Positions 1-39,686 of a DNA stretch of 64,000 nt are shown one piece after another. The notes beneath the pieces are model-generated. The model had not been told where the DNA came from and did not search any database. It saw only the letters and a program-made list of their open reading frames with translations. Source of the stretch: Candidatus Eiseniibacteriota bacterium (lineage in GTDB: Bacteria > Orphanbacterota > Orphanbacteria > Orphanbacterales > Orphanbacteraceae); assembly GCA_016867715.1 (NCBI GenBank), contig VGIW01000003.1:5251-69250 (forward strand). Direction: 5' to 3'. The translations under genes and the position numbers were made by a program. The stretch's first letter is position 1; the number at the start of each line of letters is the position of its first letter.

Positions 1-411
1 CTCGACCGGCTCGGGATACCTCACGAGATCGTCGTCGCTTCCGCGCACCGGAATCCTGATGAGGTGCGGCGCTGGGCGCGAAGCGCGGAGAAGCGCGGGA
101 TCCGGGTCGTGATCGCGGCGGCGGGGCTCGCGGCGGCTCTTCCGGGCGTGGTCGCGAGCCACACGACGCTTCCGGTCATCGGCGTGCCGGTCGCTGCGGG
201 GCCGCTTCGCGGCATGGACGCGCTCCTCTCGATGGTCCAGCTCCCTTCCGGAGTTCCGGTGGGGACGGTCGCGCTCGGCGAGACCGGCGGAAAGAACGGG
301 GCGCTCCTCGCGGCGCGGATTCTGGCTCTTCACGATCCGGGTCTCCGCGGACGATTGCTTCGCATGCGAACCTCTTCGATGAAGAGCGGCGCGAAGGAGC
401 GCACGCAGTGA
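1..411 (+). CDS. purE: N5-carboxyaminoimidazole ribonucleotide mutase PurE, 5'-truncated at the window edge
   Basis: Frame-1 translation from nucleotide 1 reads LDRLGIPHEIVVASAHRNPDEV...VIGVPV...GMDALLSMVQLPSGVPVGTVALG, which matches PurE SAHR(T)P and C-terminal motifs. It shares the frame of ORF 64..411. Confidence 0.85.
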   Translation, partial: LDRLGIPHEIVVASAHRNPDEVRRWARSAEKRGIRVVIAAAGLAAALPGVVASHTTLPVIGVPVAAGPLRGMDALLSMVQLPSGVPVGTVALGETGGKNGALLAARILALHDPGLRGRLLRMRTSSMKSGAKERTQ

Positions 412-1013
412 GCGCGCGCGAGATCGCGATCGAGGAGGCCTCTTCGGGCGAGGGCCTGGGTCTCGTGCTCGAGACGATTCGAGCGAAGGGGACTCTCGCG
501 TATCCCGCCGAGACGATGTACGGCATCGGGGGGGACGGCCTCGATCGGGAGGTCGCCGCTCGCATCGCCGCGGCGAAAGGGAGCCCGCCGGGGAAGCCGT
601 TTCTACTTCTTCTGGACGATGTCGACAGGTGGCGCCAGGTGGCGGCGTCGCTTCCGCCGAGCGCCGAAGAGGCGGCGAGAAAGCACTGGCCGGGCCCGCT
701 CACCCTTCTTCTTCCGGCGCGGGACGACTGCGCCGCCGCCTACGAGGGGAAGGTCGCAGTGCGCGTGCCGGACCTCGAGGTCGTCCGCGTGTGGGTGCGC
801 GAGGCGGGTCGCCCGCTCTTTTCCACGTCCGCGAACCGCGCGGGCCGCGCCCCCGTGCGTGGGCCGGAGGAGCTCCGCGCTCTCTTCGGCGAGCGTCTCG
901 ACCTCCTCGTCACCGGTCCCGTCTTCCCCTCGACCGGTCTCCCCTCCACGATCGTCGATGCCACCGCCGATCCTCCGCGCGTTCTGCGCCGCGGCGCCGC
1001 GCCGTTTCCGTAG
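408..1013 (+). CDS. tsaC: L-threonylcarbamoyladenylate synthase, Sua5/YrdC/YwlC family
   Basis: 201-aa ORF with YrdC-like motifs (TMYGIGGD, TSANRAG). The GTG start overlaps the purE stop (GTGA). Confidence 0.8.
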   Translation: MSAREIAIEEASSGEGLGLVLETIRAKGTLAYPAETMYGIGGDGLDREVAARIAAAKGSPPGKPFLLLLDDVDRWRQVAASLPPSAEEAARKHWPGPLTLLLPARDDCAAAYEGKVAVRVPDLEVVRVWVREAGRPLFSTSANRAGRAPVRGPEELRALFGERLDLLVTGPVFPSTGLPSTIVDATADPPRVLRRGAAPFP

Positions 1014-1368
1014 GGGGATGCGGGAGAGAAGTTCACGGCGTTGCAGGGAGGGGATACAAGCATACGAAAAGAACCGAGAGGGAGGTGTGGCAGTACCTCA
1101 TGAGGTTTCGGATCGTCAGCATTCCTCCATCACGAAGGCATCCTGTCGTTTCGCGTAGAAAGCTGTAATATGATGGGATTGATGAAGCGGTGCTTGAAGA
1201 GCCGGATCGTCGTGCGTGTTTGTGGAGAGCTGTGGGAGTTCTCAAGGTCGGAGCCTGAAGCGCCTATCGTCATCAGCAAGGGAAGACAGACGTCGCCTGC
1301 GGTTCGGGACCGGCGTCATGCTCGCTCCACCACCTACCGCCTGCGTGTCCAGCTGCAAGGAGGATGTC

Positions 1369-2769
1369 ATGGCCGGAGATGGAAGTTTTGACGAGGAAGT
1401 ATTCTTCAGCTACGCGAGCGAGGACCTGCACCACGTTCGCCAACTCGCACGAAGGCTCTGGGACGAGTACCGGATCTCGAGCTTCGTCGCTGACGACGCT
1501 CTGAAGGATCTCGCGAGAGGCGACAGATGGGAGCAGACCCTCCTCGAAAAGGTGACGAGGTGCCGGTTCTTCGCGCTCTATGCCTCCCGGTCGGTCATGG
1601 CTTCCGCGTGGGTCAATCGAGAGGTACAGCGGTTCTTTGAGGGAGCGTACTCACGGGACAACCGAAGGAAGATGTTTGTTCTCACGAGGACGGCGCAGCC
1701 GGGGGCGCATCTTCCGGCGATTCTGCGTGACTTTCTCTGGGACAAAGACGAGGATGAACTCGTCCGGGATATCGTTGCGGAACTTATAAGGTTCCTTAGT
1801 GCAGAAAAGACATCGGCTCGCGATGAGCGCGACAAGCTGGCTTCCCAGTTGGAGGCGGAGTGCGAATCAGCCGCCAAGAAAGTCCGGGAGGCGTTCGGGC
1901 ACTACGGGCAAACGAGATTCTGGAAGCCCTTTTCCCGTCACGGTCACCTGCACATCTTCACGTGCGGCCGTGATGTGCCCCCGGAGAAACACAGGGGTTC
2001 CGGAGGACGTACCAACATCGATCGCTGGGACTACCAGACGGTGCTTCAGATCACACACTTCTTCGCCGAGAACTTCCCAGGCACGAAGGTCACAATCGAG
2101 GATCCGGTGGCCAAGCTTGCTGCGGAGGACTTGACGGGAGCGAGATTGGGACACCGCGTCGCCGGCCTCATGCGGCAGCTGGAAGACAAAGACTGCGTGG
2201 TTATCGGTTCGCCGGATGTCAGCGATTTCGCCGAGATCGTCTTGGCTGAACTGCACGGGACGCAGTCGTTTGCCGAAGGCACGGACAAGTTGGGGAGGAG
2301 GGGGCGGGAAAAGCGAAGAGGTTTCGCCCTTATTAAAGCGGAGATGAAGGCACCGAGTTCGACCTACTGGCTCAAGACCGAAGATGAAGAGGTCGGCGTG
2401 AAGTGGATCGAAACCGACAAGCAGTTCAGCGTGATAGAAGAGGACGGTCTCGGCACGACCTATGGAGTCCTGGTCGTGTGCGACAATCCCTTTGTCCGGG
2501 CATCAAGGGAACACAAGGTGATCATCTTTTCGGGCTTTTCGGGTGTCGCAACGTATGGCATGTCTTGGTTGCTGACATCAATCGACGCCCTTAGTGAATT
2601 CTTCAAGATCGACCAACGATTCGGCTCGCTCGACACCGATTTCGAAGCCCTCGTTGAAGTGCAGTATGCTTACGAGCTTGAGGGGAGGGCCGCGGGTGAT
2701 CGTCGCAGGCTGATTGCGACGGAGCCGGTAAGGGTCGAAGCAATGGTGGAGATTCCGCGGCTCGTGTGA
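1369..2769 (+). CDS. TIR-domain protein with an unassigned ~320-aa C-terminal domain (466 aa from ATG 1369)
   Basis: ORF 1216..2769 carries AGGAGG 7 nt upstream of the internal ATG at 1369. The N-terminus reads EEVFFSYASEDLHHVRQLARRLWDEYRISSFVADD...GDRWEQTLLEKVTRCRFFALYASRSVMASAWVNREVQRF, a canonical bacterial TIR with the catalytic Glu in the SxWxxxE position. The C-terminal region (HGHLHIFTCGRD...VIIFSGFSGVATYGMSWLL...) has no motif I can assign. Local GC is lower than in the surrounding housekeeping genes. Confidence 0.8.
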   Translation: MAGDGSFDEEVFFSYASEDLHHVRQLARRLWDEYRISSFVADDALKDLARGDRWEQTLLEKVTRCRFFALYASRSVMASAWVNREVQRFFEGAYSRDNRRKMFVLTRTAQPGAHLPAILRDFLWDKDEDELVRDIVAELIRFLSAEKTSARDERDKLASQLEAECESAAKKVREAFGHYGQTRFWKPFSRHGHLHIFTCGRDVPPEKHRGSGGRTNIDRWDYQTVLQITHFFAENFPGTKVTIEDPVAKLAAEDLTGARLGHRVAGLMRQLEDKDCVVIGSPDVSDFAEIVLAELHGTQSFAEGTDKLGRRGREKRRGFALIKAEMKAPSSTYWLKTEDEEVGVKWIETDKQFSVIEEDGLGTTYGVLVVCDNPFVRASREHKVIIFSGFSGVATYGMSWLLTSIDALSEFFKIDQRFGSLDTDFEALVEVQYAYELEGRAAGDRRRLIATEPVRVEAMVEIPRLV

Positions 2770-3146
2770 TCTGACAAACGTGAAGGGTGGCGGGCGGGTG
2801 TTCGACCGAGAGGCAGCGGGGCCGCGAGAGCCGATGAGTCTCCGCGCTCTGGCCAGGGTGGTCCGAGAAGGCGATCTCGAGAACGGGCTTGGCGTTAGCG
2901 TCCGGATCATTCGGTGATGTATTAAGCATTCTTCCTTTTTGTGGCGCGGACATGCAGTCTATGACCGCGTCGCATCGATGCCTTCGCGTCGGGAAGGAGG
3001 TCATTGCATCACCGCGGCATACCGCGCCTTGGTGGCTCAGATGGCGAGGGGAGGGTGAGCGTGCGTCTCGTCGGACGCGGCAGCTGCGCACGAGCTGTCG
3101 GCGAGCCGCGGTCTTTCGGTCTCCGAGAAGATGCTAGGATGAAACC

Positions 3147-3335
3147 ATGATCGGTAAGGTCGTCCAAAGGCACGTGCTGGGTGATCCTGCCGCCGCGCGG
3201 CGAGATCTGGTGTATTGGGTGGGGCGATCGCCCGCGGAGCGCCTGGCGGCCGTCGAGATGCTCAGGCGATGGGTCCGTGGATGTTCAGCCAGACTTCAGA
3301 GAACTGATCGAGTTGTTCAACAGACACTGGATTGA
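3147..3335 (+). CDS. Small ORF (62 aa), possible remnant or partner of the downstream nucleotidyltransferase-like pseudogene
   Basis: ORF track only. The ...RDLVYWVGRSPAERLAAVEMLRR segment looks protein-like but I cannot place it in a family. It overlaps the start of the pseudogene fragments. Confidence 0.2.
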   Translation: MIGKVVQRHVLGDPAAARRDLVYWVGRSPAERLAAVEMLRRWVRGCSARLQRTDRVVQQTLD

Positions 3336-3500
3336 GTATTTGGTTGTGGGCCGGGTCCAGGGTTTGTGGAAGCTATGGCGAACGTCCCTGTGCACTTCAT
3401 TGGGCGGGATATGTTGATCGCGAACAAGCGCGCGGTCGGCAGGAGGAATGACCATGCAGACATCGAGGCTCTTGGCGAGGAGTGGCGCGTCAGCGCGGAC
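3270..3500 (+). pseudogene. Remnant of a small nucleotidyltransferase-like protein (family with ...ELIELLNKH.VEYLIVGG... and ...VPV.FIG..DLI.NK.A.GR..D..D.E.L): frameshift plus internal deletion
   Basis: The N-terminal fragment DFRELIELFNRHWIEYLVVG sits in the frame of ORF 3181..3417. The C-terminal fragment VPVHFIGRDMLIANKRAVGRRNDHADIEAL sits in the frame of ORF 3366..3614. About 70 codons of the middle are missing and the two pieces are in different frames. Confidence 0.6.
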
Positions 3501-3607
3501 CTCGCTGCGGCAGTCGAGCGCGCCCCTGGAACCTCTCTTCGGGAACACGTTGGTAGTGTTTCTTGCGCGATGCGGCTGCTGAGCGGCAGCAGCAAGTGGA
3601 GTGAGAG

Positions 3608-4081
3608 ATGTTGAGCGCAACCATCAAGCTTTTTCTCGTACACGGTGACGCAAAGCGCATGCGCGCTGCTGAGCTCGTGAACTGGATCGGCAAAGCGGTG
3701 GCCGGGCCGCGGAGCGAGTTAGCCTGGACTATGCACGCGTTTCCTACTGCGGCCGCGGATCTCCCTTCGCGCTTCCGCGCTCCGGGAGCTTCCTCGGCGA
3801 CCGGTCCCTCCGGGACGGGTGCCCGCCTCGGTCGCGCGAGAAGACGCCTACGAGGCCTCCCTTCCGTCGCCGCTTCCTCAACGTAGTGCCGAGACTACGT
3901 TTCCGGGAGCGGCTCGTCCAGGTCGGCCTCTCGGGCCCTAGCTCCGCATCCTCGCGACGAAAACGCGTGCATAGTCGAGGCTAGCGCTGCCGCGACCGTG
4001 ATTCACGGCGGCTCTGCCAATGGACTCGTTGCTTGGAAAACGAAAGACGGGAAGACCCTGAAGGAACTCGAGGCGGGATAA
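3608..4081 (+). pseudogene. Small ORF (about 69 aa when reconstituted) interrupted by a 264-bp inverted-repeat element
   Basis: The upstream part of ORF 3608 (MLSATIKLFLVHGDAKRMRAAELVNWIGKAVAGPRSE) and the downstream piece (AAATVIHGGSANGLVAWKTKDGKTLKELEAG*, stop 4079-4081) are in the same frame (3608 and 3977 are both 2 mod 3). Removing 3720-3983 joins them in frame. The family of the reconstituted protein is unknown. Confidence 0.35.
3720..3983. mobile_element. MITE-like element of 264 bp with 23-bp terminal inverted repeats
   Basis: The left repeat TAGCCTGGACTATGCACGCGTTT (3720-3742) matches the reverse complement of the right repeat AAACGCGTGCATAGTCGAGGCTA (3961-3983) at 22 of 23 positions. 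The element length is a multiple of 3. No clear target-site duplication. A structured RNA with a 23-bp closing stem is an alternative reading. Confidence 0.45.
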
Positions 4082-4179
4082 CTAATGGACGAGTGGCCAG
4101 GGCTGCGCGCCGCTTCTGAAGCAGAGCAGTGGGCCCGCCACCTCGCGGTGGCACCACGGGCAGCCGTTGGAGGCGAACC

Positions 4180-4647
4180 GTGAACCCGAAGTTTGCGAGA
4201 ACCGTGGAATGCTTGGAACTGAGCTTTCAGAAACTCATGCAGCAGACACCGGTTCGTCCGGACACACTGCCTTCCGCCTTGCCGAGGCGGGGGATGTACT
4301 TGTTTTCCGACGGCGGGAGTGATCTGTACGTTGGGCGCACGAACAACTTGAAGGGTCGCATTCAGAGCCAGTGCCGCAGAAGCAGTAGTCACAATCAGGC
4401 CACCTTGGCCTTCCGAATCGCTCGGAAAGAAACGGGACGCACTCAGGCCTCATACACGACTTCTGGGTCTCGAGACGATCTCGAGAGTGACCCCGGGTTT
4501 GGCCCTGTCTTCAGTAGGGCGAAAGACCGAATCAGGAAGATGGACTTGCGATTCGTAGAGGAAGAGGGCCCCACCCGGCAGGCTCTTCTCGAGATCTGTG
4601 TGGCGACGGTTTTGGAGACACCCTACAACGATTTCGAAAACCACTGA
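4180..4647 (+). CDS. Stand-alone GIY-YIG nuclease domain protein (UvrC-N-terminal-like), about 155 aa from GTG 4180
   Basis: Motifs GMYLFS(GIY)...DLYVGRTNNLKGRIQSQ (YIG-R-N)...ATLAFRIARKE...TRQALLEICVATVLETPYNDFE (E...PxYN). GGAGG lies at 4169-4173, 6 nt before the in-frame GTG at 4180. The ORF-track start at 4129 is probably a 5' over-extension. Confidence 0.75.
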   Translation: MNPKFARTVECLELSFQKLMQQTPVRPDTLPSALPRRGMYLFSDGGSDLYVGRTNNLKGRIQSQCRRSSSHNQATLAFRIARKETGRTQASYTTSGSRDDLESDPGFGPVFSRAKDRIRKMDLRFVEEEGPTRQALLEICVATVLETPYNDFENH

Positions 4648-4885
4648 GGGGGCAAATGCTGCCCAACAAGCCGCATCCGGACTCCTCCGGCAAGCGAAAA
4701 GTCTATCCGTCAGGGCGCCGGGGTTGCACTACGGCCGTAACTCAGACCCCTTGGAGCATACTCTCCGTACCGGGAGCCGCGACCGGTGAGGAGCTACGAA
4801 TCGATCACTATCTGACCGCCCGGCACCGAGCCCCGGCGCGTAATCTCGACAGAGGTCCCCGGGTCGAGCGAGCCCCGTCCCTTCC

Positions 4886-4914
4886 TTGACGAACCCCTCT
4901 CCATCCGATAGGCT
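4886..4914 (+). promoter_or_regulatory. Candidate sigma-70 promoter TTGACG-N17-TAGGCT immediately upstream of the LMW-PTP gene, probably giving a leaderless mRNA
   Basis: TTGACG at 4886-4891 and TAGGCT at 4909-4914 with a 17-nt spacer. The -10 ends 8 nt before the GTG at 4923. Confidence 0.4.
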
Positions 4915-4922
4915 CGGCGATC

Positions 4923-5456
4923 GTGGGTGAGACCGGCGAGAAGAGGCGCGTCCTTTTTGTTTGCACCGGCAACATGTGCCGGAGCCCTCTGGCGGAGGGG
5001 ATCTTTCGGGGCCTTCTCCCCCCGGAGCAGGCCGGCCGCATTGAGGTTCTCTCCGCGGGGACGAACACGATCGACGGGGAGAGGCCGACCGACCTCGCGG
5101 AGGAGGTCGCGTCGGAGAACGGGATCGACATCGGCGGCATCCGCTCGCGCCGGTTGACGACCGCGCTCGTCCGCGCGAGCGATCTCATCGTGGTCATGAC
5201 GCGCGCTCATCGCGCGAGCGTTCTCTCCCTCGCGCCCGAGGCGGACACGAAGATCCTTCTCCTTCGGGATCTCCTTCCCCCTTCGAATCCCCGCGCGGGG
5301 AAGGACCTCCCCGATCCGATCGGCGGCCCGATGGAGGCGTACCGAGAGACGGTTCGCGGCATCCGCGAGGCGCTCGCGAAGGGGTGGCTGGCGATTGAGC
5401 GGCGTCTCTTTGGGAAGGAAACGGCCGAACGGGATTCGACGTCGGCGGGGACTTGA
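4923..5456 (+). CDS. Low-molecular-weight protein tyrosine/arginine phosphatase (YwlE-like)
   Basis: VLFVCTGNMCRSPLAEGIF is the C(X)5R P-loop signature. It also carries the DPIGG/DPY-type Asp loop. 177 aa. Confidence 0.85.
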   Translation: MGETGEKRRVLFVCTGNMCRSPLAEGIFRGLLPPEQAGRIEVLSAGTNTIDGERPTDLAEEVASENGIDIGGIRSRRLTTALVRASDLIVVMTRAHRASVLSLAPEADTKILLLRDLLPPSNPRAGKDLPDPIGGPMEAYRETVRGIREALAKGWLAIERRLFGKETAERDSTSAGT

Positions 5457-5504
5457 AGAGGGTCGTCTCGGGGATCGGCCGAGGCGGCGAGAAGGAACGG
5501 AACG

Positions 5505-5523
5505 GTCGGCTCGCCGAGCCGAC
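5505..5523. repeat. Perfect 19-bp palindrome GTCGGCTCGCCGAGCCGAC in the intergenic region before rpiB-glyA
   Basis: Read directly. It ends 14 nt upstream of the ATG at 5538. Confidence 0.5.
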
Positions 5524-5537
5524 GGCTGGGTGACGGG

Positions 5538-7250
5538 ATGAAGATCGCGGTTGCGAGTGATCACGCCGGATTCGAGCGAAAGAAGAAAATCATTTCGTGG
5601 CTCAAGGAACTCGGACAGGACCCGGCCGATCTCGGCCCTCCGAACGCGGAGCCGTGCGACTATCCGAAGTACGCCTACGCCGTCGCGCGGAGCATCCGCG
5701 AGGGATCGGCGGAACGGGGCGTCCTCGTCTGCGGAAGCGGGATCGGCATGTCGATGGCGGCGAACCGCCTGACGGGGGTGCGCGCCGCGCTCTGCTCGGA
5801 CCGGGAGGCGGCGCGTCTTTCGCGCGCGCACAACGACGCGAACGTCCTCGTCCTCTCCGGGCGCGCGATGGACGACGGCGAGGCGCGCGCCGCGCTTGAG
5901 ACGTGGATCGCCGAGCCGTTCGAGGGGGGACGCCACGAGGCGCGCGTGCGCGGGATCGATCTCCCCTCCTACGGGGGAACCGAGGAGCCGGCCCCGCCGG
6001 GGGGCGGACGGCTTTCGTATCTTTTCCAGACCGATCCCGAGATCGCGGAGGCGATCCTCGGCGAGAGGCGTCGGCAGGAGACGAAGCTCGAGCTGATCGC
6101 GTCGGAGAACTTCGCGAGCGAGGCGGTTCTCGAGGCGCTCGCGACCCCGATGAACAACAAGTACGCCGAAGGGTACCCGGGGAAGCGTTACTACGGCGGC
6201 TGCGAGTTCGTGGACGTCGCCGAGCAGCTCGCGATCGACCGCTTGAAAATGATCTTCGGCGCGGATCACGCGAACGTGCAGCCCCATTCGGGCGCGTCGG
6301 CGAACATCGCCGCCTACTTCTCGCTCCTCGAGCACGGCGACACGATCCTCGGCATGAACCTCTCGCACGGTGGGCACCTCACGCACGGCCATCCGGTGAA
6401 CTTCTCCGGGCGCTTCTTCAAGGTTGCCCAGTACGGCGTGAGCCGGGAGACCGAGACGCTCGACTACGACGAGATCCGCAAGGTCGCGCGGGAAGCGAAG
6501 CCGCGCATGATCGTGAGCGGGTACTCCGCCTACCCGCGCACGATCGACTTCGCCGCCTTTCGATCGATCGCGGACGAGGTCGGTGCGTACCTCATGGTCG
6601 ACATCGCGCACATCGCCGGCCTCATTGCGGCGGGTCTCCATCCGAACCCGGTCCCGCACGCGGACATCGTAACGAGCACGACCCACAAGACCCTCCGGGG
6701 CCCGCGCGGCGGCTTCATCCTGTGCAAGAAGGAGCATCAGGAGGCGGTCGACAAGACGACCTTCCCGGGCATGCAAGGGGGGCCGCTCGAGCACTGCATC
6801 GCCGCCAAGGCGGTTTGCTTCCGCGAGGCGATGACGCCCGCCTTCCGCGAGTACCAGGGGCGGGTCGTCCGGAACGCCCGCGCGCTCGCCGCGGCGCTCG
6901 AGGCGAAGGGCTTCCGCCTCGTCTCGGGGGGGACGGACAATCACCTCATGCTCGTGAATTTGACCGACAAAGGATTGTCGGGGAAGAAGTCGGAGAAGGC
7001 GCTCGACCAGGCGGGGATCACGGTGAACAAGAACACGGTTCCCTTCGACGAGCGGTCGCCCTTCGTCACGAGCGGGATCAGGATCGGGACTCCGGCGGTG
7101 ACGACTCGCGGGATGGGGACGCGGGAGATGGAGCGCGTGGCGGAGCTCATCGGGCGCGTCCTCGCCGACCCGGCGAACGAGGGGAACCTCGAGGAAGTGC
7201 GGAAGGACGTCGAGGCTCTCTGCCGTCTGTTCCCGCTCTACCGCGGCTAG
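5538..7250 (+). CDS. glyA: In-frame fusion of ribose-5-phosphate isomerase B (aa 1-145) and serine hydroxymethyltransferase (aa ~160-570)
   Basis: The N-terminal part [16 protein letters not shown]...[18 protein letters not shown]...[12 protein letters not shown] is a complete RpiB/LacAB. A Pro/Gly-rich linker [17 protein letters not shown] follows. Then a complete SHMT: [17 protein letters not shown]...[18 protein letters not shown]...[14 protein letters not shown]...[13 protein letters not shown]. There is a single ORF with no stop and no frameshift. Confidence 0.85.
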
Positions 7251-16834: not shown

Positions 16835-16906
16835 GACCTCGCGCGGGCCCCGATTCGCGGCCGCAGCGGGAAACGCGTGCATGATCCAGGCGAGAAGGGA
16901 GGATCC

Positions 16907-29384: not shown

Positions 29385-29413
29385 TTGACACCGGGAGGGG
29401 CCTTGGGTACATT
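29385..29413 (+). promoter_or_regulatory. Candidate sigma-70 promoter TTGACA-N17-TACATT upstream of the TonB-dependent receptor gene
   Basis: TTGACA at 29385-29390 and TACATT at 29408-29413. AAGGAGAGAGG sits before the ATG at 29478. Confidence 0.45.
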
Positions 29414-29477
29414 GGCTTCGGCGTTTATGCAGGTCGTTGAACGGTGTCCGGCGTCGCCGCATATAAGGAGAGAGGTC

Positions 29478-32186
29478 ATGGCTTCGCAGAGGAATTCCGG
29501 TCCTCGCGCATCCGTCCTTCTCGCGCTCGCCTTGCTCTTCGTTCTTGGGACGGCCTTCGCACAGGACGGTCAAACGGGAACGCTGTCGGGCCAAGTCCGC
29601 GAAGCGGAAACAGGCAAGCCGATCGCTTGGGCGGATGTGCTCATTCAGGGAACGACCATCGGAGGCATCAGCCAGCAGAACGGGACGTTCACGATCTACA
29701 AGATTCCGGCGGGAACGTACACGGTGACCGTTCAGATGATGGGCTACACGCCTCGGAAGTTCGAGGGGGTCGCGGTCGTCCCGGGCCAGGTGACGAACCT
29801 GATCGCCGAGCTCTCCGAGACCGCCGTGCAGATGGAGACGATCCGCATCGGTGCGGACGAGAAGATGGACGTCACCGAGCAGACGAGGACAGAGTACAAG
29901 ATCGACAAGGAAGAGTTCAAGATTCGCGCTATCAACACGGTGACCGACGCCCTCGCGAAGCAGCCCGGCGTGACGATCGACGGCCAAGGGCGCCTTCACG
30001 TGCGCGGCGGCCGCGCGGACGAGGTGAAGTACTTCGTCGATGGGATGCCCGTGACCGACCCGTTCGTGGGCCAGAACACGCTCGATGTCTCGTTTGCGTC
30101 TCTCGAGAACATCCAACTCCTCTCGGGCGGTTTCGATGCCGAGTTCGGCAACGCTCAGTCAGGGATCGTGAACATCCAGACCGCGGAGGGGGGCAGGAAG
30201 TTCTCGGGGCTCGTGAAGTACATGACGGACGACTACGGGGCGCCGGACAAGACTTACTGGAACGCGGACGACATCGCCTTCGCGGTAGGAGGACCGCTCG
30301 TCTCCAAGGACCTGCGATTCCACCTGTCGGCGGAAGCGAACTTCAGCGACACATATATCAAACCTCGAAAGGAATACACGAAGCGGGAGGTCTACGGGAT
30401 CACGCTTCAGGATCGCATCTACAACCAGTACCGAGGCCAGGGGAAGCTGACTTACTACTTCTCGCCGGAGATGAAGCTGTCCACGGAAGCGCTCTACACG
30501 CGCTCCTTGCAGGATCAGTACCATCACCCGTACAGCCGAGTCGGGTGGTGGTCGGCCGAGGCGAAGCGCTGGTGGTATGAACCTCTCGACACGACCTACG
30601 TCTTCTATTCCGGCCCGGAGCACCTGCCCCGCTTCATCACCGAGGACAGCCAGGCGAAGGCGTCGTGGACCCATACCCTCTCTCCCGAGACGTTTTATAC
30701 GCTCAAGGTCAGCCGCTTCACGACCAGCTATCTGGAGCGGGTGGGGCACAAGGAGCCCCGGGAGTACATTCCGACGTACAGGAGCGACGAGTACGTCGAT
30801 CCGGCGAACCGCTACTTCGTCGTGCAGGGGGACTACCCGCACTACCAAGACTATCGGACGAGGCGCTACACGGTGCGATCCGACCTCACGAGCCAGGTGA
30901 CGGAGCGGCACCGGATGAAGACCGGCCTCGAGCTCGATTACTACGATCTTTCCATGTTCGAGGCGACCTATCCCGACTCGAACCGCCCCGAGGGACCGTG
31001 GCCGGACCGCTACAACGTCTTCTCCTGGGGGGGCGCGGCGTACATCCAGGACAAGCTCCAGTACGAGGGGATGGTCCTGAGCGCGGGTCTGCGGCTCGAC
31101 TTCTTCGATCCGGGGGCGCGTGCCGCGCGGATCGGGAACGAGTTCCTTGCCTCGACGTTCCAGACGCCGCAGGACATCTCGCTCTGGTCCCGCCTCAAGA
31201 AGCAGGTGAGCCCTCGTCTCGGCATGGCCTATCCGATCTCCGACCGGGACGTGCTCCACTTCCACTACGGCCGGTTCTACCAGCTCCCCGTCTTCGAGCG
31301 GATGTACAAGGGGATCGGTCAGCAGATCGAGCAGGACGGGGGCACCTACGGGAATATCTTCCTCGATCCGGAGAAGAATATCAGCTACGAGCTCGGCGTC
31401 GACCATCAGCTGACGAAGACCTTGAACCTCGACATGACCGTCTTCTTCAAGGACATCTTCGGTTGGATCGATACGGACGAGATCGTGAACGGGAGCCTCG
31501 CGAGCTTCGGCAACTCCGCCCCGATCGGATACGTGAACCAGGCCTACGGGACGGTGAAAGGTTTGGAGTTCAAGCTGAACCGAAGGCTCGCGAACAAGTT
31601 CGGGGGGAGCATCGTCTACACGCTGGCCCGGGCGACCGGGACTTTCTCGGACGACAACTCGCAAGCCCTCGTGGGGACCGGCGTGCTCAATCGGAAGCCG
31701 CTCACGGAGAACCCGCTCAACTGGGACCGGACGCACGCGGTCGTGGGGAACCTCATTCTCACCGACCCGGGCGTCTGGGAGTTCTCGATGGACTACATGT
31801 ACGAAACCGGCTCTCCGTTCACCCCGCGGCGGTACCAGCAGAGGAGCATCGACGCGGAGGACATGAACTCGGCACGCCTCCCTGACGAGTCCCGGCTCGA
31901 CGTGCGGGCAAACAAGCTCTACAGCATCTACGGTCAGGAGTTCCGCCTCTTTGTGGAGGCGAACAACGTGCTGAACCGCGAGAACATCCGGGATCTCAGT
32001 CCCGGCGAGTGGCCGAGCAATAGCGGGCTCTACACGGTCTACTACACCGAGACGGGACAGCTCGGCGGAGCGTACAACCTGAACGACGTGAACGCGTCCG
32101 CCGGGAACCAGTACGTCTCCCTGGGCGACCCGCGCGTGCTCGATCCGATGCGGCGGGTGAAGGTCGGGATCATGTTCGACTGGTAG
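29478..32186 (+). CDS. TonB-dependent outer-membrane receptor with an N-terminal carboxypeptidase-regulatory-like domain
   Basis: Signal peptide MASQRNSGPRASVLLALALLFVLGTAFAQ, a CarbopepD_reg-like segment GTLSGQVRE...TYTVTV, a plug TVTDALAKQPGV, and a long barrel ending in ...GIMFDW with an aromatic C-terminus. Confidence 0.8.
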   Translation: MASQRNSGPRASVLLALALLFVLGTAFAQDGQTGTLSGQVREAETGKPIAWADVLIQGTTIGGISQQNGTFTIYKIPAGTYTVTVQMMGYTPRKFEGVAVVPGQVTNLIAELSETAVQMETIRIGADEKMDVTEQTRTEYKIDKEEFKIRAINTVTDALAKQPGVTIDGQGRLHVRGGRADEVKYFVDGMPVTDPFVGQNTLDVSFASLENIQLLSGGFDAEFGNAQSGIVNIQTAEGGRKFSGLVKYMTDDYGAPDKTYWNADDIAFAVGGPLVSKDLRFHLSAEANFSDTYIKPRKEYTKREVYGITLQDRIYNQYRGQGKLTYYFSPEMKLSTEALYTRSLQDQYHHPYSRVGWWSAEAKRWWYEPLDTTYVFYSGPEHLPRFITEDSQAKASWTHTLSPETFYTLKVSRFTTSYLERVGHKEPREYIPTYRSDEYVDPANRYFVVQGDYPHYQDYRTRRYTVRSDLTSQVTERHRMKTGLELDYYDLSMFEATYPDSNRPEGPWPDRYNVFSWGGAAYIQDKLQYEGMVLSAGLRLDFFDPGARAARIGNEFLASTFQTPQDISLWSRLKKQVSPRLGMAYPISDRDVLHFHYGRFYQLPVFERMYKGIGQQIEQDGGTYGNIFLDPEKNISYELGVDHQLTKTLNLDMTVFFKDIFGWIDTDEIVNGSLASFGNSAPIGYVNQAYGTVKGLEFKLNRRLANKFGGSIVYTLARATGTFSDDNSQALVGTGVLNRKPLTENPLNWDRTHAVVGNLILTDPGVWEFSMDYMYETGSPFTPRRYQQRSIDAEDMNSARLPDESRLDVRANKLYSIYGQEFRLFVEANNVLNRENIRDLSPGEWPSNSGLYTVYYTETGQLGGAYNLNDVNASAGNQYVSLGDPRVLDPMRRVKVGIMFDW

Positions 32187-32198
32187 TCGTCCCATCGC

Positions 32199-34439
32199 GT
32201 GAACCGGGGGAATGAAACCATGACGGGGGTTCGTGGAAAAACTCGAGAGGGACGCGTCGCGGGTTCGAGGAAGCTCCCGGCGGCCGTCCGAAGCGCGGCG
32301 GTCGTGCTTTTGTTCGCGGCTCTTGCGGGAAGCGCGCTCGCGCGCCCGGCGCCCGGCCAAGAGGATCTGATCGATCGGACGGCGCCGCCGGTCCACCAGG
32401 TCCCGAACTTCGGGGCGACCTATCACAACGTCGGGAAGCTCGTCCTTCATGTGTCGAACTTTGGGATCTTCGGGACCTCGGGCCAGTTCTCGTACAACCA
32501 GGCCCCGTCGGGCCAGTGGCCTCCGGGGAGCGGACACGAGTACCTGTGGGCCGCGGGTCTCTGGGTCGGCGGGGTGGTCCCGCGGCTGGACAACCCGAGC
32601 ACAGAAGATACGCTCGTTTCCTCGGCCGTGTACGAGTGGGAGTACCGGCCGGACATCTTCGATCCGGTCGCGACGATCTACCAGACGTGGGAAGGGAGGC
32701 CGGGAGGGGCGCGCAACGTCGACGACGACGGCGACGGGGAGATCGACGAGGACCCCCTCGACGGGATCAACAACGATCCTTGGAACGACACCCGGGTCGA
32801 CGAGGATCACTACGCGATCGGGCAGCAGATGTACCGGTGCGTCTTCTACGACACTTCCACGGTCCGGAACCAGTTCATCGCGGACCCGAATTGGCTTCAC
32901 TTTCCGCTCGGATTGAAGGTGACGCAGGAGAGCTACCAGTGGGTAGGGCGGAACTGGGACGACTTCGTGGGGATCCAATTCGAGATCGAGAACATTACGC
33001 TGCGCACCTTCAAGGACGTGTACGTCGGCTTCATGGTCGACTCGGACATCGGGAACGCTCGGATCACGGAGAACATCTACCTGGACGACCTGTCCAACTT
33101 CATCTCGCAGGACACCACGATCATCGTGCCGGGGCGCGATCCGGAGAAGCTGGACCTCAGCATCGGCTACATGCGCGACGTGGAGGGAGGGGACGACGGC
33201 GATAACGCGAACGCCCTCTTCGGGGTGATGTTCCTCGGACATACGGTCGACTCGACGGGGGTGAACGCCCCCGAGAAGGTCGAGATCCATGCGTATCGCT
33301 CATGGTCGGGAGGGGACGAGGACCCGGAGCACGACCGCGAGCGCTATCGCTATCTCCGCGGCGAGAACCGGGTCGGCAACCGATGGCTCCAGCACATCGA
33401 CCCGCCGGAGAGCCGTCCGGACGACTATCGAATGCTCGTCTCGGCGGGTCCCTTCCGGGAGCTTCGCCCGGGGGGCAAGCTGACGTTCCAGTCCGCGTTC
33501 GTGGTGCTCGACCCCTTGAACTATGATCGCAACGACCCGGAGCAGGTGCGCCTCTACATGCTCGGCAACGCGATCGCGGCGCAGCGGATCTTCAATCGGA
33601 ACTGGACCGCCGCCGCCGCGCCGCCGCCGCCGAACCAGGACGTGATCCCGGGCGACCGCCGGGTGACAATCGAGTGGGACGACTTCTCCGAGCTCACCCC
33701 CGACCCGCTCAGCCAGAAGTACGACTTCCAGGGATACCAGGTCTGGAAGGCGGTCGGTTGGCGTCGCGAGGCGGCCGAGCCGCGCGACGAAGACTGGTTC
33801 CTCCTGGCAGAAATCGACAAGAAGGATCTCTCCAACTTCGACACGGGGGCGCAGGGGGTCGGGAAGTACCGCTATCTCGACACGCGCGACGTGAAGAACG
33901 GGTTCGCCTACTGGTACGCGGTGACCGCGTACGATCACGGCGATCCCTCCGAAGGGATTCAGCCGGAATACGGCAAGTACTCCCAATCGCGGATGCTGGT
34001 CTATCCGCGCTTTAACCCGACGCGATCTCTCGACGACGCGGTCGATGTGTACGACGTCGATCCGACCACCGGCGAGGTTCTCTCGAAGACGACGCGGACG
34101 GACGTCAAGAACGTCCATGTCGTCCCGAACCCTTACAAGGAAGGCGCCGATTGGGACGAGGCGAGCTGGACGGATCCAACCCATCCCCTCGGCGGGAACG
34201 CCACCGGGCGGAAGATCTACTTCGTGAACCTTCCGGAGCGCGCGACGATCCGTATCTACACGCTCGGCGGAGACCTTGTGCAGACGATCGAGCACCGTTA
34301 TGATCTCAGCCCGAGCAACGACATGACGTACTGGAACCTCGTGTCTCGAAACAACCAGGAAGTGGTGAGCGGCGTCTACATCTTCCATATCGAATCCCCG
34401 GTCGGCGAGAAAGTCGGGCGCTTCGTCGTGATTCGCTAG
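32199..34439 (+). CDS. Secreted protein with a T9SS-type C-terminal sorting domain and an Asp-rich Ca-binding-like segment; function unknown
   Basis: Signal peptide. DDDGDGEIDEDPLDGINNDPWND resembles a DxDxDG-type Ca-binding repeat. The C-terminal ~80 aa, VHVVPNPYKEG...RIYTLGGDLVQTIEH...SGVYIFHIES...FVVIR, matches a T9SS CTD (PNP start, G.Y pattern). Confidence 0.7.
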   Translation: MNRGNETMTGVRGKTREGRVAGSRKLPAAVRSAAVVLLFAALAGSALARPAPGQEDLIDRTAPPVHQVPNFGATYHNVGKLVLHVSNFGIFGTSGQFSYNQAPSGQWPPGSGHEYLWAAGLWVGGVVPRLDNPSTEDTLVSSAVYEWEYRPDIFDPVATIYQTWEGRPGGARNVDDDGDGEIDEDPLDGINNDPWNDTRVDEDHYAIGQQMYRCVFYDTSTVRNQFIADPNWLHFPLGLKVTQESYQWVGRNWDDFVGIQFEIENITLRTFKDVYVGFMVDSDIGNARITENIYLDDLSNFISQDTTIIVPGRDPEKLDLSIGYMRDVEGGDDGDNANALFGVMFLGHTVDSTGVNAPEKVEIHAYRSWSGGDEDPEHDRERYRYLRGENRVGNRWLQHIDPPESRPDDYRMLVSAGPFRELRPGGKLTFQSAFVVLDPLNYDRNDPEQVRLYMLGNAIAAQRIFNRNWTAAAAPPPPNQDVIPGDRRVTIEWDDFSELTPDPLSQKYDFQGYQVWKAVGWRREAAEPRDEDWFLLAEIDKKDLSNFDTGAQGVGKYRYLDTRDVKNGFAYWYAVTAYDHGDPSEGIQPEYGKYSQSRMLVYPRFNPTRSLDDAVDVYDVDPTTGEVLSKTTRTDVKNVHVVPNPYKEGADWDEASWTDPTHPLGGNATGRKIYFVNLPERATIRIYTLGGDLVQTIEHRYDLSPSNDMTYWNLVSRNNQEVVSGVYIFHIESPVGEKVGRFVVIR

Positions 34440-34505
34440 CGAGCGGGGAGGACGGATTCCATGCGCGACGGTACTCATGAAGATAGAAGAAAGGAGCGAT
34501 TGCTG

Positions 34506-35480
34506 ATGCGGAACCGACTCGCAGCCGCGTTCGTTGGTCTCCTCCTCGTGCACGGCGCGGCCCACGGCACGGAGATCTTCGCGAAGGTGGGAACCATCGG
34601 CGCTCAGTTCCTCAAGATCGGTGTGGGGGGAAGAGGGGTCGCGATGGGCGAGTCGTTCGTCGCGATCGCCGACGACGCCTCGGCGCTTTATTGGAACCCC
34701 GCGGGAATCGCGAGGCTCGAGGGGCAGAGCCACGTGTTCTTCTCGCATTCCGCGTGGCCGGCGGACATCGGCCACGAGTTCGCCGGGTATGTCTTCACGT
34801 ACGGAGGGATCCCCGGGGTGATGGGTGTGAGCCTCAACGTGCTTCAAATGGACCCGATGATCCGCACGACCGAGTATCACCCCGATGGACGGAACCTCGC
34901 CGGCTCGCAGGAGCTCGAGCAGTTCGACGCGGGCGACATGGCGATCGGCGTCTCCTATGCGCGCTTCCTCACCGACAAGTTCGCGTTCGGAGGCACGCTG
35001 AAGTGGATTCACCAGGGCCTCGAGGACGAGTTCGCCGAGGGGCTGAACTTCGACTTCGGAACGCTCTACAACACCGGCTTCCGAACGGTCACGATCGGCA
35101 TGACCGTGCAGAACATCGGCCCGACGATGAAGTTCATCGATCAAGAGTTTTCTCCGCCGACGACGTTCAAGCTCGGCGTCGCGATGGACGCGTTTCGGTC
35201 GGCGCAACACGCGGTCCTGACGTCCGCCGAGTTCAACCATCCGAGCGACAACAAAGAGCGCGCGAATCTCGGCCTCGAGTACGAATACATCCCGCTGGAG
35301 AGGTTCTCCGTCGCTCTCAGGGGCGGCTACATGACCAACCGCGACATCCAGGATTACGCGCTCGGATTCGGCGTGGGATTCCCCACAAGCGCGACCGCGA
35401 CGGCCGACGTGAACTACTCCTTCATGAACATGAAGGAGTTGGGCGCCACGCATCAGGTCAGCGTCATCCTCAGCTACTAG
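34506..35480 (+). CDS. porV: PorV/PorQ-family outer-membrane beta-barrel (T9SS-associated porin)
   Basis: Signal peptide, then GGRGVAMGESFVAIADDASALYWNPAGIARLEG, the hallmark of the PorV/UPF0164 family. Confidence 0.65.
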   Translation: MRNRLAAAFVGLLLVHGAAHGTEIFAKVGTIGAQFLKIGVGGRGVAMGESFVAIADDASALYWNPAGIARLEGQSHVFFSHSAWPADIGHEFAGYVFTYGGIPGVMGVSLNVLQMDPMIRTTEYHPDGRNLAGSQELEQFDAGDMAIGVSYARFLTDKFAFGGTLKWIHQGLEDEFAEGLNFDFGTLYNTGFRTVTIGMTVQNIGPTMKFIDQEFSPPTTFKLGVAMDAFRSAQHAVLTSAEFNHPSDNKERANLGLEYEYIPLERFSVALRGGYMTNRDIQDYALGFGVGFPTSATATADVNYSFMNMKELGATHQVSVILSY

Positions 35481-35561
35481 CCGCGACCCGCGCCGGCGGT
35501 CGGACGGGTCGCGTCTTCCTGCGGGAGACCGTCCGGAAGAGGGCGGCGCTGGAGGTGCGGC

Positions 35562-37106
35562 GTGAGGAAGACGGGAAGACTCGGGCCGGCCACCGGAAGA
35601 CTCCTTCTCCTGCTCGGGATGGCGCTGTCCGCCGCGTCCGGTGCGAGCGCGGATTCCGACGGCGAGCCGGTGGGTTCCGCGGGGCGCATCCGCTTCGTGG
35701 TCGACGCGGTCAGCTTTCCCCGATCGGCCGGAAACACGACCGAGGAGGTCTACCTCCTCCTCTCGAGCAAGGATCTCCGCTTCGAGGACCGCGGGAACGG
35801 GACAGCCGATGCCGAGATCCGCGTCCGATTCCACTTCCGGGCCTGGCCGACCGGGGAGACGATCCTTCGCAAAGCGATGACCGCCGTTCTCCCGAAGGAA
35901 CCGAGCGCGGAGGGGGGGGGCGGTCTCCAGCTTCTCCAACATGCGTTCTCGCTGCCGGAAGGTCCGTATCAGCTCGTGGTGGAAGTGGAGGACCTACGGA
36001 CGCGCGGCTTCGGTTTCTTCCGGCTCTTCGGGAGGCGTCCAAACATGGGGAAGGCGCTCGCGTACTTCGAGGCCAAGGGGTTTCGCCCGCAAGCTCTCGC
36101 GATCTCGGACATCCAGCTCGCGCGAAGCTTGGCGCCGGATGCCGCGAGCGAGTTCGCGAAAGGGAACCTCGAGGTGATCCCGCAGCCGAACCGTCTCTAC
36201 GGCGCCCTCATGCCCGTCCTCTCGTTCTACTATGAGATCTACGATCTCGGCGACGGGCAGGATCCGGCGGGAGAACCGTACCGCGTGACGCACCGTGTGA
36301 CCGGCTCGGATGGGGCGGTCGTGCTCGAGGAGAAGGTGGCGCTTCAAGCGGCGCCCGGGGTTTCGCGCTTCCGGCGGAGCGGCACGTTCAACCTTGCAGA
36401 CCTCGATCCCGGATCGTACGATCTCCAGGTTTCCATCGAGAGCCCTTCACGCGATCTCGTAACGGAAGACGAGCGCCGCTTCCGCGTGATCTGGAAGAGC
36501 GAGGACACGGCCGGATGGGAGGCCGAGACGAGCGGCGGGCAGGCATGGAGCTACCGGGGAAGGACCTCCGAGGAGAGCGTGATCGAGGAGATGCGCCCGA
36601 TTCTCGGGCAGGGAGATCTTCAGAGGTTGGAGGGGATGGCACCCGAGGAGAGGAGGGCGTGGATCGAGCAGTACTGGAAGGCGAGGGATCCGACGCCCGG
36701 CACGGAACTGAACGAGCTCCGGGAGGAACACTATCAGCGGATTCGGACGGCGAACGTGCGATACGGAGCTCTTCTTCTCAAGGGGATGGAAACGGATCGA
36801 GGCCGCATCTACATTCGTTACGGCGAACCGGACGAGATCCGAATCGGGTTCGCCGATCAATCGTTCGTTCCCGGATCGTCCACGAGACCCGGATCGATGG
36901 GTCAGATCGGCGAGGTCGGGCGGTCGCGCGGGGGCTACAATGTAGAAGAAAAAGAGTACGAGGTCTGGACGTACAACGAAAGAGGGCGCATCCTTGGAGA
37001 TCGTGGGAAGGTGGCCGGCGGGCTCGGCCTCCGGTTTGTCTTCGCCGACCTGGAGGGCTACGGGAACTACCGTCTGGTGGAAAGCTCGGAAGAGGGGGAA
37101 TACTGA
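35562..37106 (+). CDS. GWxTD domain-containing secreted protein
   Basis: Signal peptide; the C-terminal KGMETDRGRIYIRYGEPDEI fits the GWxTD domain core. Confidence 0.65.
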   Translation: MRKTGRLGPATGRLLLLLGMALSAASGASADSDGEPVGSAGRIRFVVDAVSFPRSAGNTTEEVYLLLSSKDLRFEDRGNGTADAEIRVRFHFRAWPTGETILRKAMTAVLPKEPSAEGGGGLQLLQHAFSLPEGPYQLVVEVEDLRTRGFGFFRLFGRRPNMGKALAYFEAKGFRPQALAISDIQLARSLAPDAASEFAKGNLEVIPQPNRLYGALMPVLSFYYEIYDLGDGQDPAGEPYRVTHRVTGSDGAVVLEEKVALQAAPGVSRFRRSGTFNLADLDPGSYDLQVSIESPSRDLVTEDERRFRVIWKSEDTAGWEAETSGGQAWSYRGRTSEESVIEEMRPILGQGDLQRLEGMAPEERRAWIEQYWKARDPTPGTELNELREEHYQRIRTANVRYGALLLKGMETDRGRIYIRYGEPDEIRIGFADQSFVPGSSTRPGSMGQIGEVGRSRGGYNVEEKEYEVWTYNERGRILGDRGKVAGGLGLRFVFADLEGYGNYRLVESSEEGEY

Positions 37107-37260: not shown

Positions 37261-38121
37261 ATGACATCGATCGGCAGGAAGACGGGTGTTTGGGCTCTGA
37301 TGGGAGCGCTTCTCGGGGTTCTCCTCATCGCGGCGCCTCTCAGCGCGCAGGAGGATCTCGGGGCGGCGGAGGAGGAGCCGGGCGTCGCAAGCGAGGCGGA
37401 AACGGCGGTCGAGGAACCGGCCGCTTCAACGGAGGAGCTCGCGAGCGGCGCGGGCTTCGCGGACGTCGAGGAAGAGACCGGCTTCTTCGGGCGCCTCGCG
37501 AAGAGCGGGCTCGTGCAGCTCTTTGATCAGGGCGGAAACTTCATGTGGCCGCTTCTCGCCTGCTCGATCATCGGTCTGGCGGTTCTCATCGAGAGGCTCG
37601 TCACCCTCTTCCGCGCGAAGGTGAACGTGCGAAACCTGATCGGCCGAGTGGTCGAGGCGCTCAACAAGGACGGGATCGAGGGAGCGATGCGCGTGTGCGA
37701 GGAGACGCGGGGGCCGATCGCCGCGATTCTCCACGCCGGGCTTCTGAGAGCCCGGCAGGGGCGCGTGGAGATCGAGAAAGCGATCGAGACGGCGGGCGCC
37801 ATCGAGATGAGCTTCTTGGAGCGCGGGCTGATCGTGCTCTCCTCGATCGTGACGATCGCCCCGCTGCTCGGCTTCCTCGGGACGGTGTCCGGGATGATCC
37901 GCGCGTTCAACGACATCGCGGCGGCGGAGCAGGTGAACGCGAAGATCGTCGCGAGCGGTATCTCCGAGGCGCTGATCACGACGGCTGCGGGGCTCATCAT
38001 CGCGATCCCGTGCCAGGCGGCGTACAACTTCTTCGTCGCCCAAATCGATCGTTTCGTGATCGAGATGGAAGAAGCCGCCTCGGAGGTCATGGAGAGCCTG
38101 GGCACGCTGGAAGGCAAGTAA
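37261..38121 (+). CDS. exbB: MotA/TolQ/ExbB proton-channel protein with an N-terminal signal peptide and acidic extension
   Basis: The C-terminal 200 aa carry three transmembrane segments and the GTVSGMIRAF motif. The N-terminal ~90-aa extension is the Bacteroidetes/FCB style. Confidence 0.85.
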   Translation: MTSIGRKTGVWALMGALLGVLLIAAPLSAQEDLGAAEEEPGVASEAETAVEEPAASTEELASGAGFADVEEETGFFGRLAKSGLVQLFDQGGNFMWPLLACSIIGLAVLIERLVTLFRAKVNVRNLIGRVVEALNKDGIEGAMRVCEETRGPIAAILHAGLLRARQGRVEIEKAIETAGAIEMSFLERGLIVLSSIVTIAPLLGFLGTVSGMIRAFNDIAAAEQVNAKIVASGISEALITTAAGLIIAIPCQAAYNFFVAQIDRFVIEMEEAASEVMESLGTLEGK

Positions 38122-38122
38122 C

Positions 38123-38530
38123 ATGAAGATTCGGAAGAGGGCAAAAGGGGAGCCGGAAATCCCGAACGCGTCGATGTCCGACGTGGCCTTTCTCCTGCTG
38201 ATCTTCTTCCTCGTCACGACGATCTTCAACGTGGAGAAGGGCCTCGACATCGTGCTCCCGAACCTCGGGACGAGCCCGAAGCGGATCGCGAAGCAGAACC
38301 TGTGCGAGATCAGGATCGCCGCTTCCGGACGGGTGACGGTCGACGGGGTCGAGACGGCGGTGCGGGGGCTCGAGGACGTGATTCGGAGGAGGCTGATCGA
38401 AAACGACAAGACGATCTGCGTGATCGAGACCCACCCCGGATCCTACTACGGGATCATGGTGGACGTGCTCGACGAGCTGAAGCTCGCCGAGGCGACGAAG
38501 ATCACGCTTCGCACGGGCGGAGGCGGATAG
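38123..38530 (+). CDS. exbD: ExbD/TolR biopolymer transport protein
   Basis: MSDVAFLLLIFFLVT... Confidence 0.85.
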   Translation: MKIRKRAKGEPEIPNASMSDVAFLLLIFFLVTTIFNVEKGLDIVLPNLGTSPKRIAKQNLCEIRIAASGRVTVDGVETAVRGLEDVIRRRLIENDKTICVIETHPGSYYGIMVDVLDELKLAEATKITLRTGGGG

Positions 38531-38533
38531 ACG

Positions 38534-38956: not shown

Positions 38957-38959
38957 GCG

Positions 38960-39631: not shown

Positions 39632-39686
39632 TCCGGAGTCGCGTCCGTCGAGGGGAAGCGCGCCGGCCGGGTACCGGCGGAGCTCC

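Follow-up and report, generated by a model that had tools for sequence, protein, structure and literature searches.

Hotspots flanked by core genes have been documented in bacteria, such as cDHS1 and cDHS2 in Pseudomonas aeruginosa (PMC10250203); defence-island hotspots have also been documented in Escherichia coli (PMC10121019). Among single proteins, SpbK of the Bacillus subtilis element ICEBs1 is a TIR NADase that acts by abortive infection, and a phage portal protein activates it by binding it directly and clustering its TIR domains (PMC12847820). Here we describe the junction between the housekeeping genes tsaC and ywlE in a 64,000-nt stretch of a Candidatus Eisenbacteria genome (contig VGIW01000003.1; the whole stretch is called the window below), where a small island of lower GC content separates the two genes and carries a gene for a TIR-domain protein. 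Sequence comparison indicates that this junction is a hotspot of accessory DNA gain, swap and erosion in the lineage, and we give the overall account of hotspot, island and decay a probability of about 0.75.

Like the core-gene hotspots, the junction combines a fixed housekeeping-gene site with varying cargo, conflict-type genes, deviant composition and no obligatory integrase. It differs from the core-gene defence hotspots in that the island is only 3.6 kb, that two genomes were available for comparison, that the cargo of the sister genome is respiratory, and that PADLOC gave no complete known defence system; PADLOC results here are those of profile models against open reading frames (ORFs), and system-level PADLOC/DefenseFinder logic on the whole contig was not part of the scan. 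Four cargos make up the island: a functional single-gene TIR protein; a pair of small ORF and nucleotidyltransferase (toxin-antitoxin-like), of which the enzyme is without its catalytic core; a PDC-S14-type DUF4357 gene which has lost its middle and been struck by a miniature inverted-repeat transposable element (MITE); and a mobilome-type GIY-YIG gene of 155 amino acids (aa), with open frame and a change of His to Gln at an otherwise invariant site. The features of the junction are listed here by their window coordinates.

408-1013, plus strand: tsaC (Sua5/YciO/YrdC family; PF01300, E 2e-41), left core flank
1041-1368, no strand: leader (non-coding) of the TIR gene, where the variable segment has its left end
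1369-2769, plus strand: intact gene for the TIR-plus-C-domain protein, 466 aa (PF13676; TIR at about residues 8-125, long helix 128-179, C-domain about 180-466)
2770-3146, no strand: non-coding stretch, no recognisable content
3147-3335, plus strand: intact 62-aa ORF, putative upstream partner of the nucleotidyltransferase (end-to-end alignment with an ORF of contig L048)
3274-3345, plus strand: nucleotidyltransferase relic, N-terminal piece MDVQPDFRELIELFNRHWIEYLVVG, matching the N-termini of proteins P0223 and P0224
3378-3482, plus strand: nucleotidyltransferase relic, C-terminal piece ANVPVHFIGRDMLIANKRAVGRRNDHADIEALGEE in another frame, with 77-78% identity to P0223 and P0224 at their C-termini
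3608-3719, plus strand: N-terminal 37 codons of a PDC-S14-type (DUF4357) gene (PADLOC PDC-S14, E 2.9e-10, profile 24-60 of 320)
3720-3983, no strand: MITE of 264 bp with 23-nt terminal inverted repeats TAGCCTGGACTATGCACGCGTTT, the inverted repeat being 96% complementary
3983-4081, plus strand: C-terminal 32 codons assigned to the same DUF4357 gene (PF14267, E 2.7e-10)
4180-4647, plus strand: stand-alone 155-aa GIY-YIG-family ORF, frame intact, more than 1200 homologues
4688-4922, plus strand: conserved ywlE leader, right boundary of the variable segment (alignment with the sister genome)
4923-5456, plus strand: ywlE-type low-molecular-weight phosphatase (PF01451, E 3e-29), right core flank

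The relatives compared at tsaC/ywlE were one sister metagenome-assembled genome (MAG), 'Gemmatimonadetes bacterium DeMMO4_6' (L011), and one distant Eisenbacteria MAG (L012). TsaC is 94% identical in the sister and 47% in the distant MAG, YwlE is 88% and 50% identical, respectively, and RpiB-GlyA is 67% identical in the distant MAG. The gene order of the distant MAG is purE, tsaC, ywlE, a 311-aa ORF, rpiB::glyA, nrdR and tatC, and its tsaC and ywlE are adjacent, 36 nt apart as ORFs and 136 nt apart as tblastn matches. The sister has flanks that are 93% (window 1-1040) and 86% (window 4670-5810) identical to ours, and the DNA between them is unrelated to the window island and similar in size; this cargo (L011 2630-5444) encodes a 745-aa quinol-type nitric oxide (NO) reductase (qNOR; COX1 plus NorB cytochrome c-like domain) and a hemerythrin-domain protein. 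Fine alignment with the sister placed the breakpoints at about 1040-1050 and at 4687/4688, with homology resuming at about 4670-4688, and both genomes share an identical block of 46 nt upstream of the ywlE start. The same core-gene site is thus empty in one relative and filled with other cargo in the other, which points to a hotspot that was ancestrally empty and has taken up alternative cargos. We suppose that tsaC was ancestrally followed directly by ywlE, and that about 3.65 kb of foreign, lower-GC DNA (1041-4687) came between them, probably accreted in more than one event. As a separate observation, the respiratory or NO-detoxification trait of qNOR and hemerythrin varies between close relatives at tsaC/ywlE.

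Identical TsaC was found in nine Logan samples, and in 9/9 of them the TIR gene follows tsaC; one Logan assembly has the side with GIY-YIG, ywlE and rpiB-glyA. Exact-protein look-ups for ywlE and nrdR returned the same strain only. The island content is fixed within the strain or species. It could be argued that the segment is ancestral to the lineage and was lost in the relatives, so that differential loss and not insertion made the difference; this would agree with nine near-identical strains that all have the same content and with a comparison resting on two relatives only. We consider it very improbable, since the breakpoints are exactly the same in the sister and enclose unrelated cargo of similar size there, GC content and GC content at third codon positions (GC3) deviate from the flanks, and homologues of the TIR and GIY-YIG genes occur in unrelated contexts and phyla.

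An earlier note on this DNA, made from the letters alone, had proposed that a lower-GC insertion of about 3.9 kb splits the neighbourhood of tsaC, ywlE, rpiB and glyA, with tsaC ending at 1013 and the phosphatase starting at 4923. Both gene ends were confirmed by PF01300 and PF01451, and the gap between the genes is 3.9 kb (1014-4922). This gap has a GC content of 60.1% and the remainder of the window 66.4%, and no other 3.9-kb segment of the 64 kb is as low. In a profile of 300-bp steps, GC was 0.54-0.62 inside the island and 0.65-0.73 outside it (0.70-0.73 in tsaC), and it rose to 0.65-0.75 past about 4700. The TIR gene had a GC3 of 0.71 and the GIY-YIG gene one of 0.68, against 0.82-0.90 in six flanking genes (purE, tsaC, ywlE, rpiB-glyA, nrdR and tatC). 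Neither of the two outcomes that the note had named as refuting the insertion was obtained: the compared relatives lack this gene set between tsaC and ywlE (one is empty there, the other has other cargo), and the computed GC profile is uneven. Its extent was overstated, however; the variable segment covers about 1041-4687, and 4688-4922 is the conserved ywlE leader.

The TIR protein is the only component of the island that looks fully active in its sequence. Its gene starts with ATG at 1369, with AGGAGG 6 nt upstream, and gene callers agree on it in nine samples. The protein matches PF13676 (TIR_2) with 48.5 bits (cut-off 28) over residues 62-170 of the long ORF, and it shows the flavodoxin-like TIR fold. 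Models of the protein had a pLDDT (predicted local distance difference test) of 85.7 (AlphaFold) and 88, and in the AlphaFold model the TIR fold is followed by a helix of about 50 residues and then by an alpha/beta plus beta-rich domain. About 100 members, each of about 450 aa, could be detected for the family with this TIR-plus-C-domain arrangement, and the region after TIR is conserved more strongly than TIR itself, with the motifs HIFTCGRD, RGxGGRTNIDKWDY, GSPDVSDFAE and GFSGVAT. Glu85 (E85) is invariant across 68 family members. A search of the PDB with the TIR domain as single sequence gave no match and a profile search was needed; in the profile search of PDB sequences E85 aligned with the Glu of 'WTNYE' in AbTir, 'WCLDE' in RUN1 and 'WCLEE' in Roq1 (W-x-x-x-E), the catalytic residue of TIR NADases. 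The window copy has 0 departures at 60 columns that are conserved at 90% or more, and its dN/dS against an 85% identical homologue is 0.047. The sequences indicate that the TIR gene is under purifying selection and functional.

The homologues of the TIR protein sit in the following places.

P0004 (L019 10001-11404), 85% identical: after dnaG-rpoD and before carbonic anhydrase, locus GC 55%
P0015 (L023 10001-11404), 75% identical: between DUF1398 and recA, locus GC 62.5%
P0018 (L033 6001-7377), 53% identical: in a phage, between ParB/Lar/Exo_endo_phos genes and a terminase-portal-capsid block, locus GC 49%
KSB1 homologue (L054 8001-9326), 40% identical: between isocitrate lyase and malate synthase
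Prosthecobacter homologue, 35% identical: no recurring partner
Homologue in a 5.4-Mb genome, 32% identical: no recurring partner

The gene is a singleton without shared neighbour in all six contexts examined, and the comparison of loci found no non-coding flanks or mobility gene common to them that might mark a candidate mobile unit. The family is patchy across bacterial phyla and is also present in at least one archaeal MAG. The window holds no housekeeping gene that could be compared with the organism of the 85% homologue; only RpoZ was comparable (through L010), and it aligned over 23 residues only, at 39% identity. Judged by RpoZ, the carrier of the 85% homologue is only distantly related, and so the TIR gene moved horizontally. 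A two-gene system of TIR and GIY-YIG was also considered and was rejected, as the two families never co-occur in the contexts examined. The suggestion that the intact survivors form a functioning system therefore holds for the TIR gene as a lone candidate, but not for the two genes together.

The C-domain (285 aa) had no match in Pfam, NCBIfam, PADLOC and PHROGs. An exhaustive HMMER search with the C-domain alone gave just 160 clusters among 1.84 billion representatives, and the domain is also fused to other N-terminal modules in proteins of 426-965 aa. The fusion partner is Mrr_cat with pentapeptide repeats in P0251 and a nucleoside-deoxyribosyltransferase (NDT)/TIR-like domain in P0298, P0303, P0330, P0349 and others; in P0100 the C-domain follows an N-terminus like a helix-turn-helix (HTH), this HTH being judged by eye only. 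Interchangeable cell-killing domains on one conserved domain are an architecture typical of defence sensors. We tentatively suggest, with somewhat less than even confidence, that the C-domain is a new sensor module on interchangeable killing domains (TIR, Mrr nuclease, NDT/TIR-like) and that it defines a family of single-protein abortive-infection systems, whose lone genes would spread to places between housekeeping genes and are also phage-borne.

For the TIR protein we propose, by analogy with SpbK, that the conserved C-terminal domain senses a phage-derived cue, that the long helix and the C-domain drive self-association, and that the clustered TIR domains would hydrolyse NAD+ via Glu85 and stop the infected cell by abortive infection, with no need of a partner gene. 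It resembles SpbK as a lone TIR protein without partner gene, on horizontally moving DNA and with the NADase-aligned Glu, and TIR clustering is proposed here as well. It is unlike SpbK in its domain order and has no related non-TIR part: here the TIR domain is N-terminal and is followed by the 50-residue helix and the 285-aa domain. An anti-phage abortive-infection role of the gene is slightly favoured over its absence. Some TIR proteins, such as ThsB of Thoeris, produce signals and do not deplete NAD+, and this counts for another explanation, in which the protein is not anti-phage and would be a toxin of another conflict system, a phage counter-defence or superinfection-exclusion protein, or a generator of an NAD-derived signal for an unlinked effector. 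That one homologue is phage-encoded, that the family is without PADLOC model and that no function is assignable to the C-domain also agree with it. Such a role seems doubtful to us, since no conserved neighbour was present as effector or immunity partner in the six contexts, and a C-domain that stays the same while its effector-type partner changes (TIR, Mrr, NDT-like) is a pattern seen in defence sensors.

Two known TIR systems were tried and rejected for this gene. Thoeris would need a ThsA-type effector gene (SIR2/SLOG or Macro), and there is none in the window or in the six homologue contexts; the match to ThsB had E 0.012. CBASS of the TIR-SAVED type was dismissed because there is no SAVED domain and no adjacent CD-NTase.

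Several points weigh against our reading of a hotspot that holds an active, transferred defence-type gene. Only one sister and one distant genome are behind the hotspot comparison, and a turnover frequency is not derivable from them. The sister cargo is metabolic (qNOR and hemerythrin), which makes the junction a variable hotspot of a general kind rather than one dedicated to defence. About 61-62% GC is also reached by an ordinary gene in another part of the window, that of a TonB-dependent receptor; composition alone is thus not decisive, and the comparison with relatives is. The dS of the TIR gene against its closest homologue is 1.8, which means that the transfer was not recent. PADLOC gave the TIR region weak matches only (PDC-S66, E 0.003, besides that to ThsB), and in tblastn searches neither GenBank phages nor PLSDB plasmids matched the TIR protein. 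The earlier note had called the segment a decaying defence island and had advised a search for known systems. This search went against the name in its strict sense: the PADLOC models matched no complete known system among the ORFs, only the PDC-S14 relic and the weak TIR region, so the clustered recognised systems of a defence island were not found. On the whole the interpretation is supported, with defence being what we infer for the conflict-type genes; the sister cargo is respiratory. The word 'decaying' was apt: of the five genes, two are relics with internal deletions, and the MITE lies in one of them.

The nucleotidyltransferase gene is one of these relics. It retains the N-terminal 24 and the C-terminal 35 residues of the 150-154-aa proteins P0223 and P0224; about 90 central residues with the GG...D.D core are gone, and the two pieces are in different frames. 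P0224 itself has Pfam matches to DUF6036, AbiEii and aminoglycoside nucleotidyltransferase, all of them weak and sub-threshold. No DUF6036/AbiEii-like core in one reading frame is left in the relic, in agreement with the frameshifted, internally deleted gene that had been described from the letters. The same description of the material between TIR and GIY-YIG genes has to be extended by the 62-aa ORF (3147-3335), which is a separate intact gene according to its alignment with L048. The counterpart in L048, an unrelated metagenome contig, lies at about 2889-3077, is uncalled and overlaps the 5' end of a DUF6036-like nucleotidyltransferase gene. The 62-aa ORF had no match in scans of Pfam, PADLOC, NCBIfam and PHROGs, and DUF6036-like nucleotidyltransferases probably have in it a small, antitoxin-like partner that has escaped annotation. 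Upstream of it, the ORFs in 2770-3146 had no match in Pfam, PADLOC, NCBIfam or PHROGs, there was no Rfam match and the tblastx matches were at chance level only. It fits with the roughly 0.4 kb of non-coding debris noticed before.

The second relic lies around the MITE. The C-terminal piece has 40.5 bits against a cut-off of 38.4 for DUF4357 (profile 28-54 of 54) and also matches phrog_12629 with E 1.8e-10. By these matches, the pieces 3608-3719 and 3983-4081 belong to one gene of about 300 aa, of which both ends are left and the middle is missing. Proteins of the PADLOC candidate system PDC-S14 have about 300 aa and end in DUF4357, and the window copy is like them in its N-terminal 37 residues and its DUF4357 tail. 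It is unlike them in that about 230 central codons are gone and the MITE sits at the junction; the ORF does not run from end to end, the MITE between the pieces contains a stop codon, and the window copy is a dead relic. The 'small ORF cut by a MITE-like element' of the first reading was right in the MITE, which is real and multi-copy, but the ORF is the N-terminal end of the PDC-S14/DUF4357 gene, with the other end past the MITE.

The element is short, non-coding, bounded by terminal inverted repeats and present in several copies at unrelated sites, as MITEs are. The family ends are TAGCCTGGACTATGCACGCGTTT...AAACGCGTGCATAGTCCAGGCTA and its length variants span 162-327 bp. Ten contigs came out of a pattern scan of JGI metagenomes, this locus being one of them; there were at least seven independent copies of 182-327 bp with unrelated flanks. 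The sister MAG has a short copy of 162 bp (L011 5694-5855) exactly at the right edge of its variable segment, after the qNOR and hemerythrin genes and abutting the conserved right flank, and a solitary MITE end is present in an intergenic spacer of the window (16856-16893). All copies with both ends readable are bounded by TA, which is either a target duplication or part of the repeat. In its shortness (162-327 bp), lack of coding content, terminal inverted repeats, many unrelated sites and TA boundaries it is like the TA-inserting MITEs of the IS630/Tc1-mariner type, and it is unlike them in that no autonomous parent of the window MITE was found.

The Logan contigs all end exactly 30 nt (k-1) inside the MITE, as fits a real multi-copy repeat; such breaks would also agree with a join that is an artefact of assembly or binning, with the TIR and GIY-YIG sides not contiguous. 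The independent JGI contig L042, however, runs through both MITE ends and is 100% identical over 3432-4562, so the join does not stem from faulty assembly. In addition, one gene family is encoded on both sides of the MITE, with its N-terminal end on one and its C-terminal end on the other, and the TIR and GIY-YIG genes are both reported on one contig of 110,536 bp. We hold an artefact to be extremely unlikely.

The GIY-YIG gene starts with GTG at 4180. Nearly all of its more than 1200 homologues have 155 aa, and many have PF01541; the window protein reached 18.1 bits with this model, below the cut-off of 22.6, and homologues with 55-69% identity often carry PF01541. The homologues stand alone: beside DUF2059 and groES, in a D5-type primase/terminase element, and on rhizobial conjugative plasmids. 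The window copy has five departures (P14L, I39M, H64Q, D130G and Y140C) from columns conserved at 90% or more, which is the most in the 28-sequence sample. Codon 64 (4369-4371) encodes Gln and all 27/27 homologues have His there, four residues past the conserved Arg; by comparison with I-TevI, the His64 position is presumably part of the GIY-YIG catalytic motif. The other conserved residues of this motif (the two Tyr, Arg, Glu and Asn, here Y40, Y50, R60, E138 and N150) are kept. The substitutions suggest that the window copy may be catalytically impaired or in early decay, which is a hint and not a demonstration. Of the two intact genes that had been claimed, the TIR gene with its AGGAGG before ATG 1369 is intact without reserve; the GIY-YIG gene is intact in frame, but may be impaired by H64Q.

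No tRNA gene lies within 12 kb of the island, no integrase or structural gene is among the ORFs of the window, and the search for flanking direct, inverted or att-like repeats found only the MITE ends, other pairs being short and chance-like. An Rfam scan of 900-5100 with E up to 1 gave no RNA family, a promoter and terminator scan gave none above the shuffled expectation, and similarity of 1041-1368 to the other fetched loci was not found. Without integrase, tRNA gene or flanking repeat, homologous recombination via the conserved flanks would be the most likely turnover route, a route that has been described for core-gene hotspots (PMC10250203). The segment might also be the eroded stump of a larger mobile element (prophage, satellite or integrative element) whose integrase and ends were deleted, and the TIR homologue next to terminase genes in a phage, the GIY-YIG homologues in a primase/terminase element and on conjugative plasmids near an integrase, and the ongoing erosion seen in relics and MITE are all compatible with this. 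But the absence of any integrase, tRNA gene, att-like direct repeat or structural gene, together with four gene modules that are never linked elsewhere and so point to piecemeal accretion, makes a stump of this kind unlikely, and we prefer the hotspot with exchange of cargo.

Some other observations were made in the window. The genes rpiB and glyA form one fused 570-aa ORF (5538-7250; LacAB_rpiB at residues 3-139, SHMT at 164-538). The rpiB::glyA fusion is also present in the distant Eisenbacteria MAG (L012 12136-13851), so that it is an old lineage feature and not a sequencing error. Lower-GC kilobases with GC of 0.61-0.62 were found at 30001-32000 and 38001-39000 and were considered as possible further islands. 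They hold the TonB-dependent receptor gene (29385-32186), and a MotA/ExbB gene (37261-38121) is near them. Three long ORFs on the opposite strand (30159-33290, 33300-35942 and 38087-39994) had no Pfam match.

The island itself is ordinary, one more small case of the variable hotspots that core genes flank. For a candidate phylum that has been little studied, it gives a well-resolved series of empty site, alternative cargo and decayed cargo. Of more use is the rare and strongly conserved TIR-plus-C-domain family, which is a single-gene candidate anti-phage system and whose C-domain is a candidate new trigger-sensing domain.

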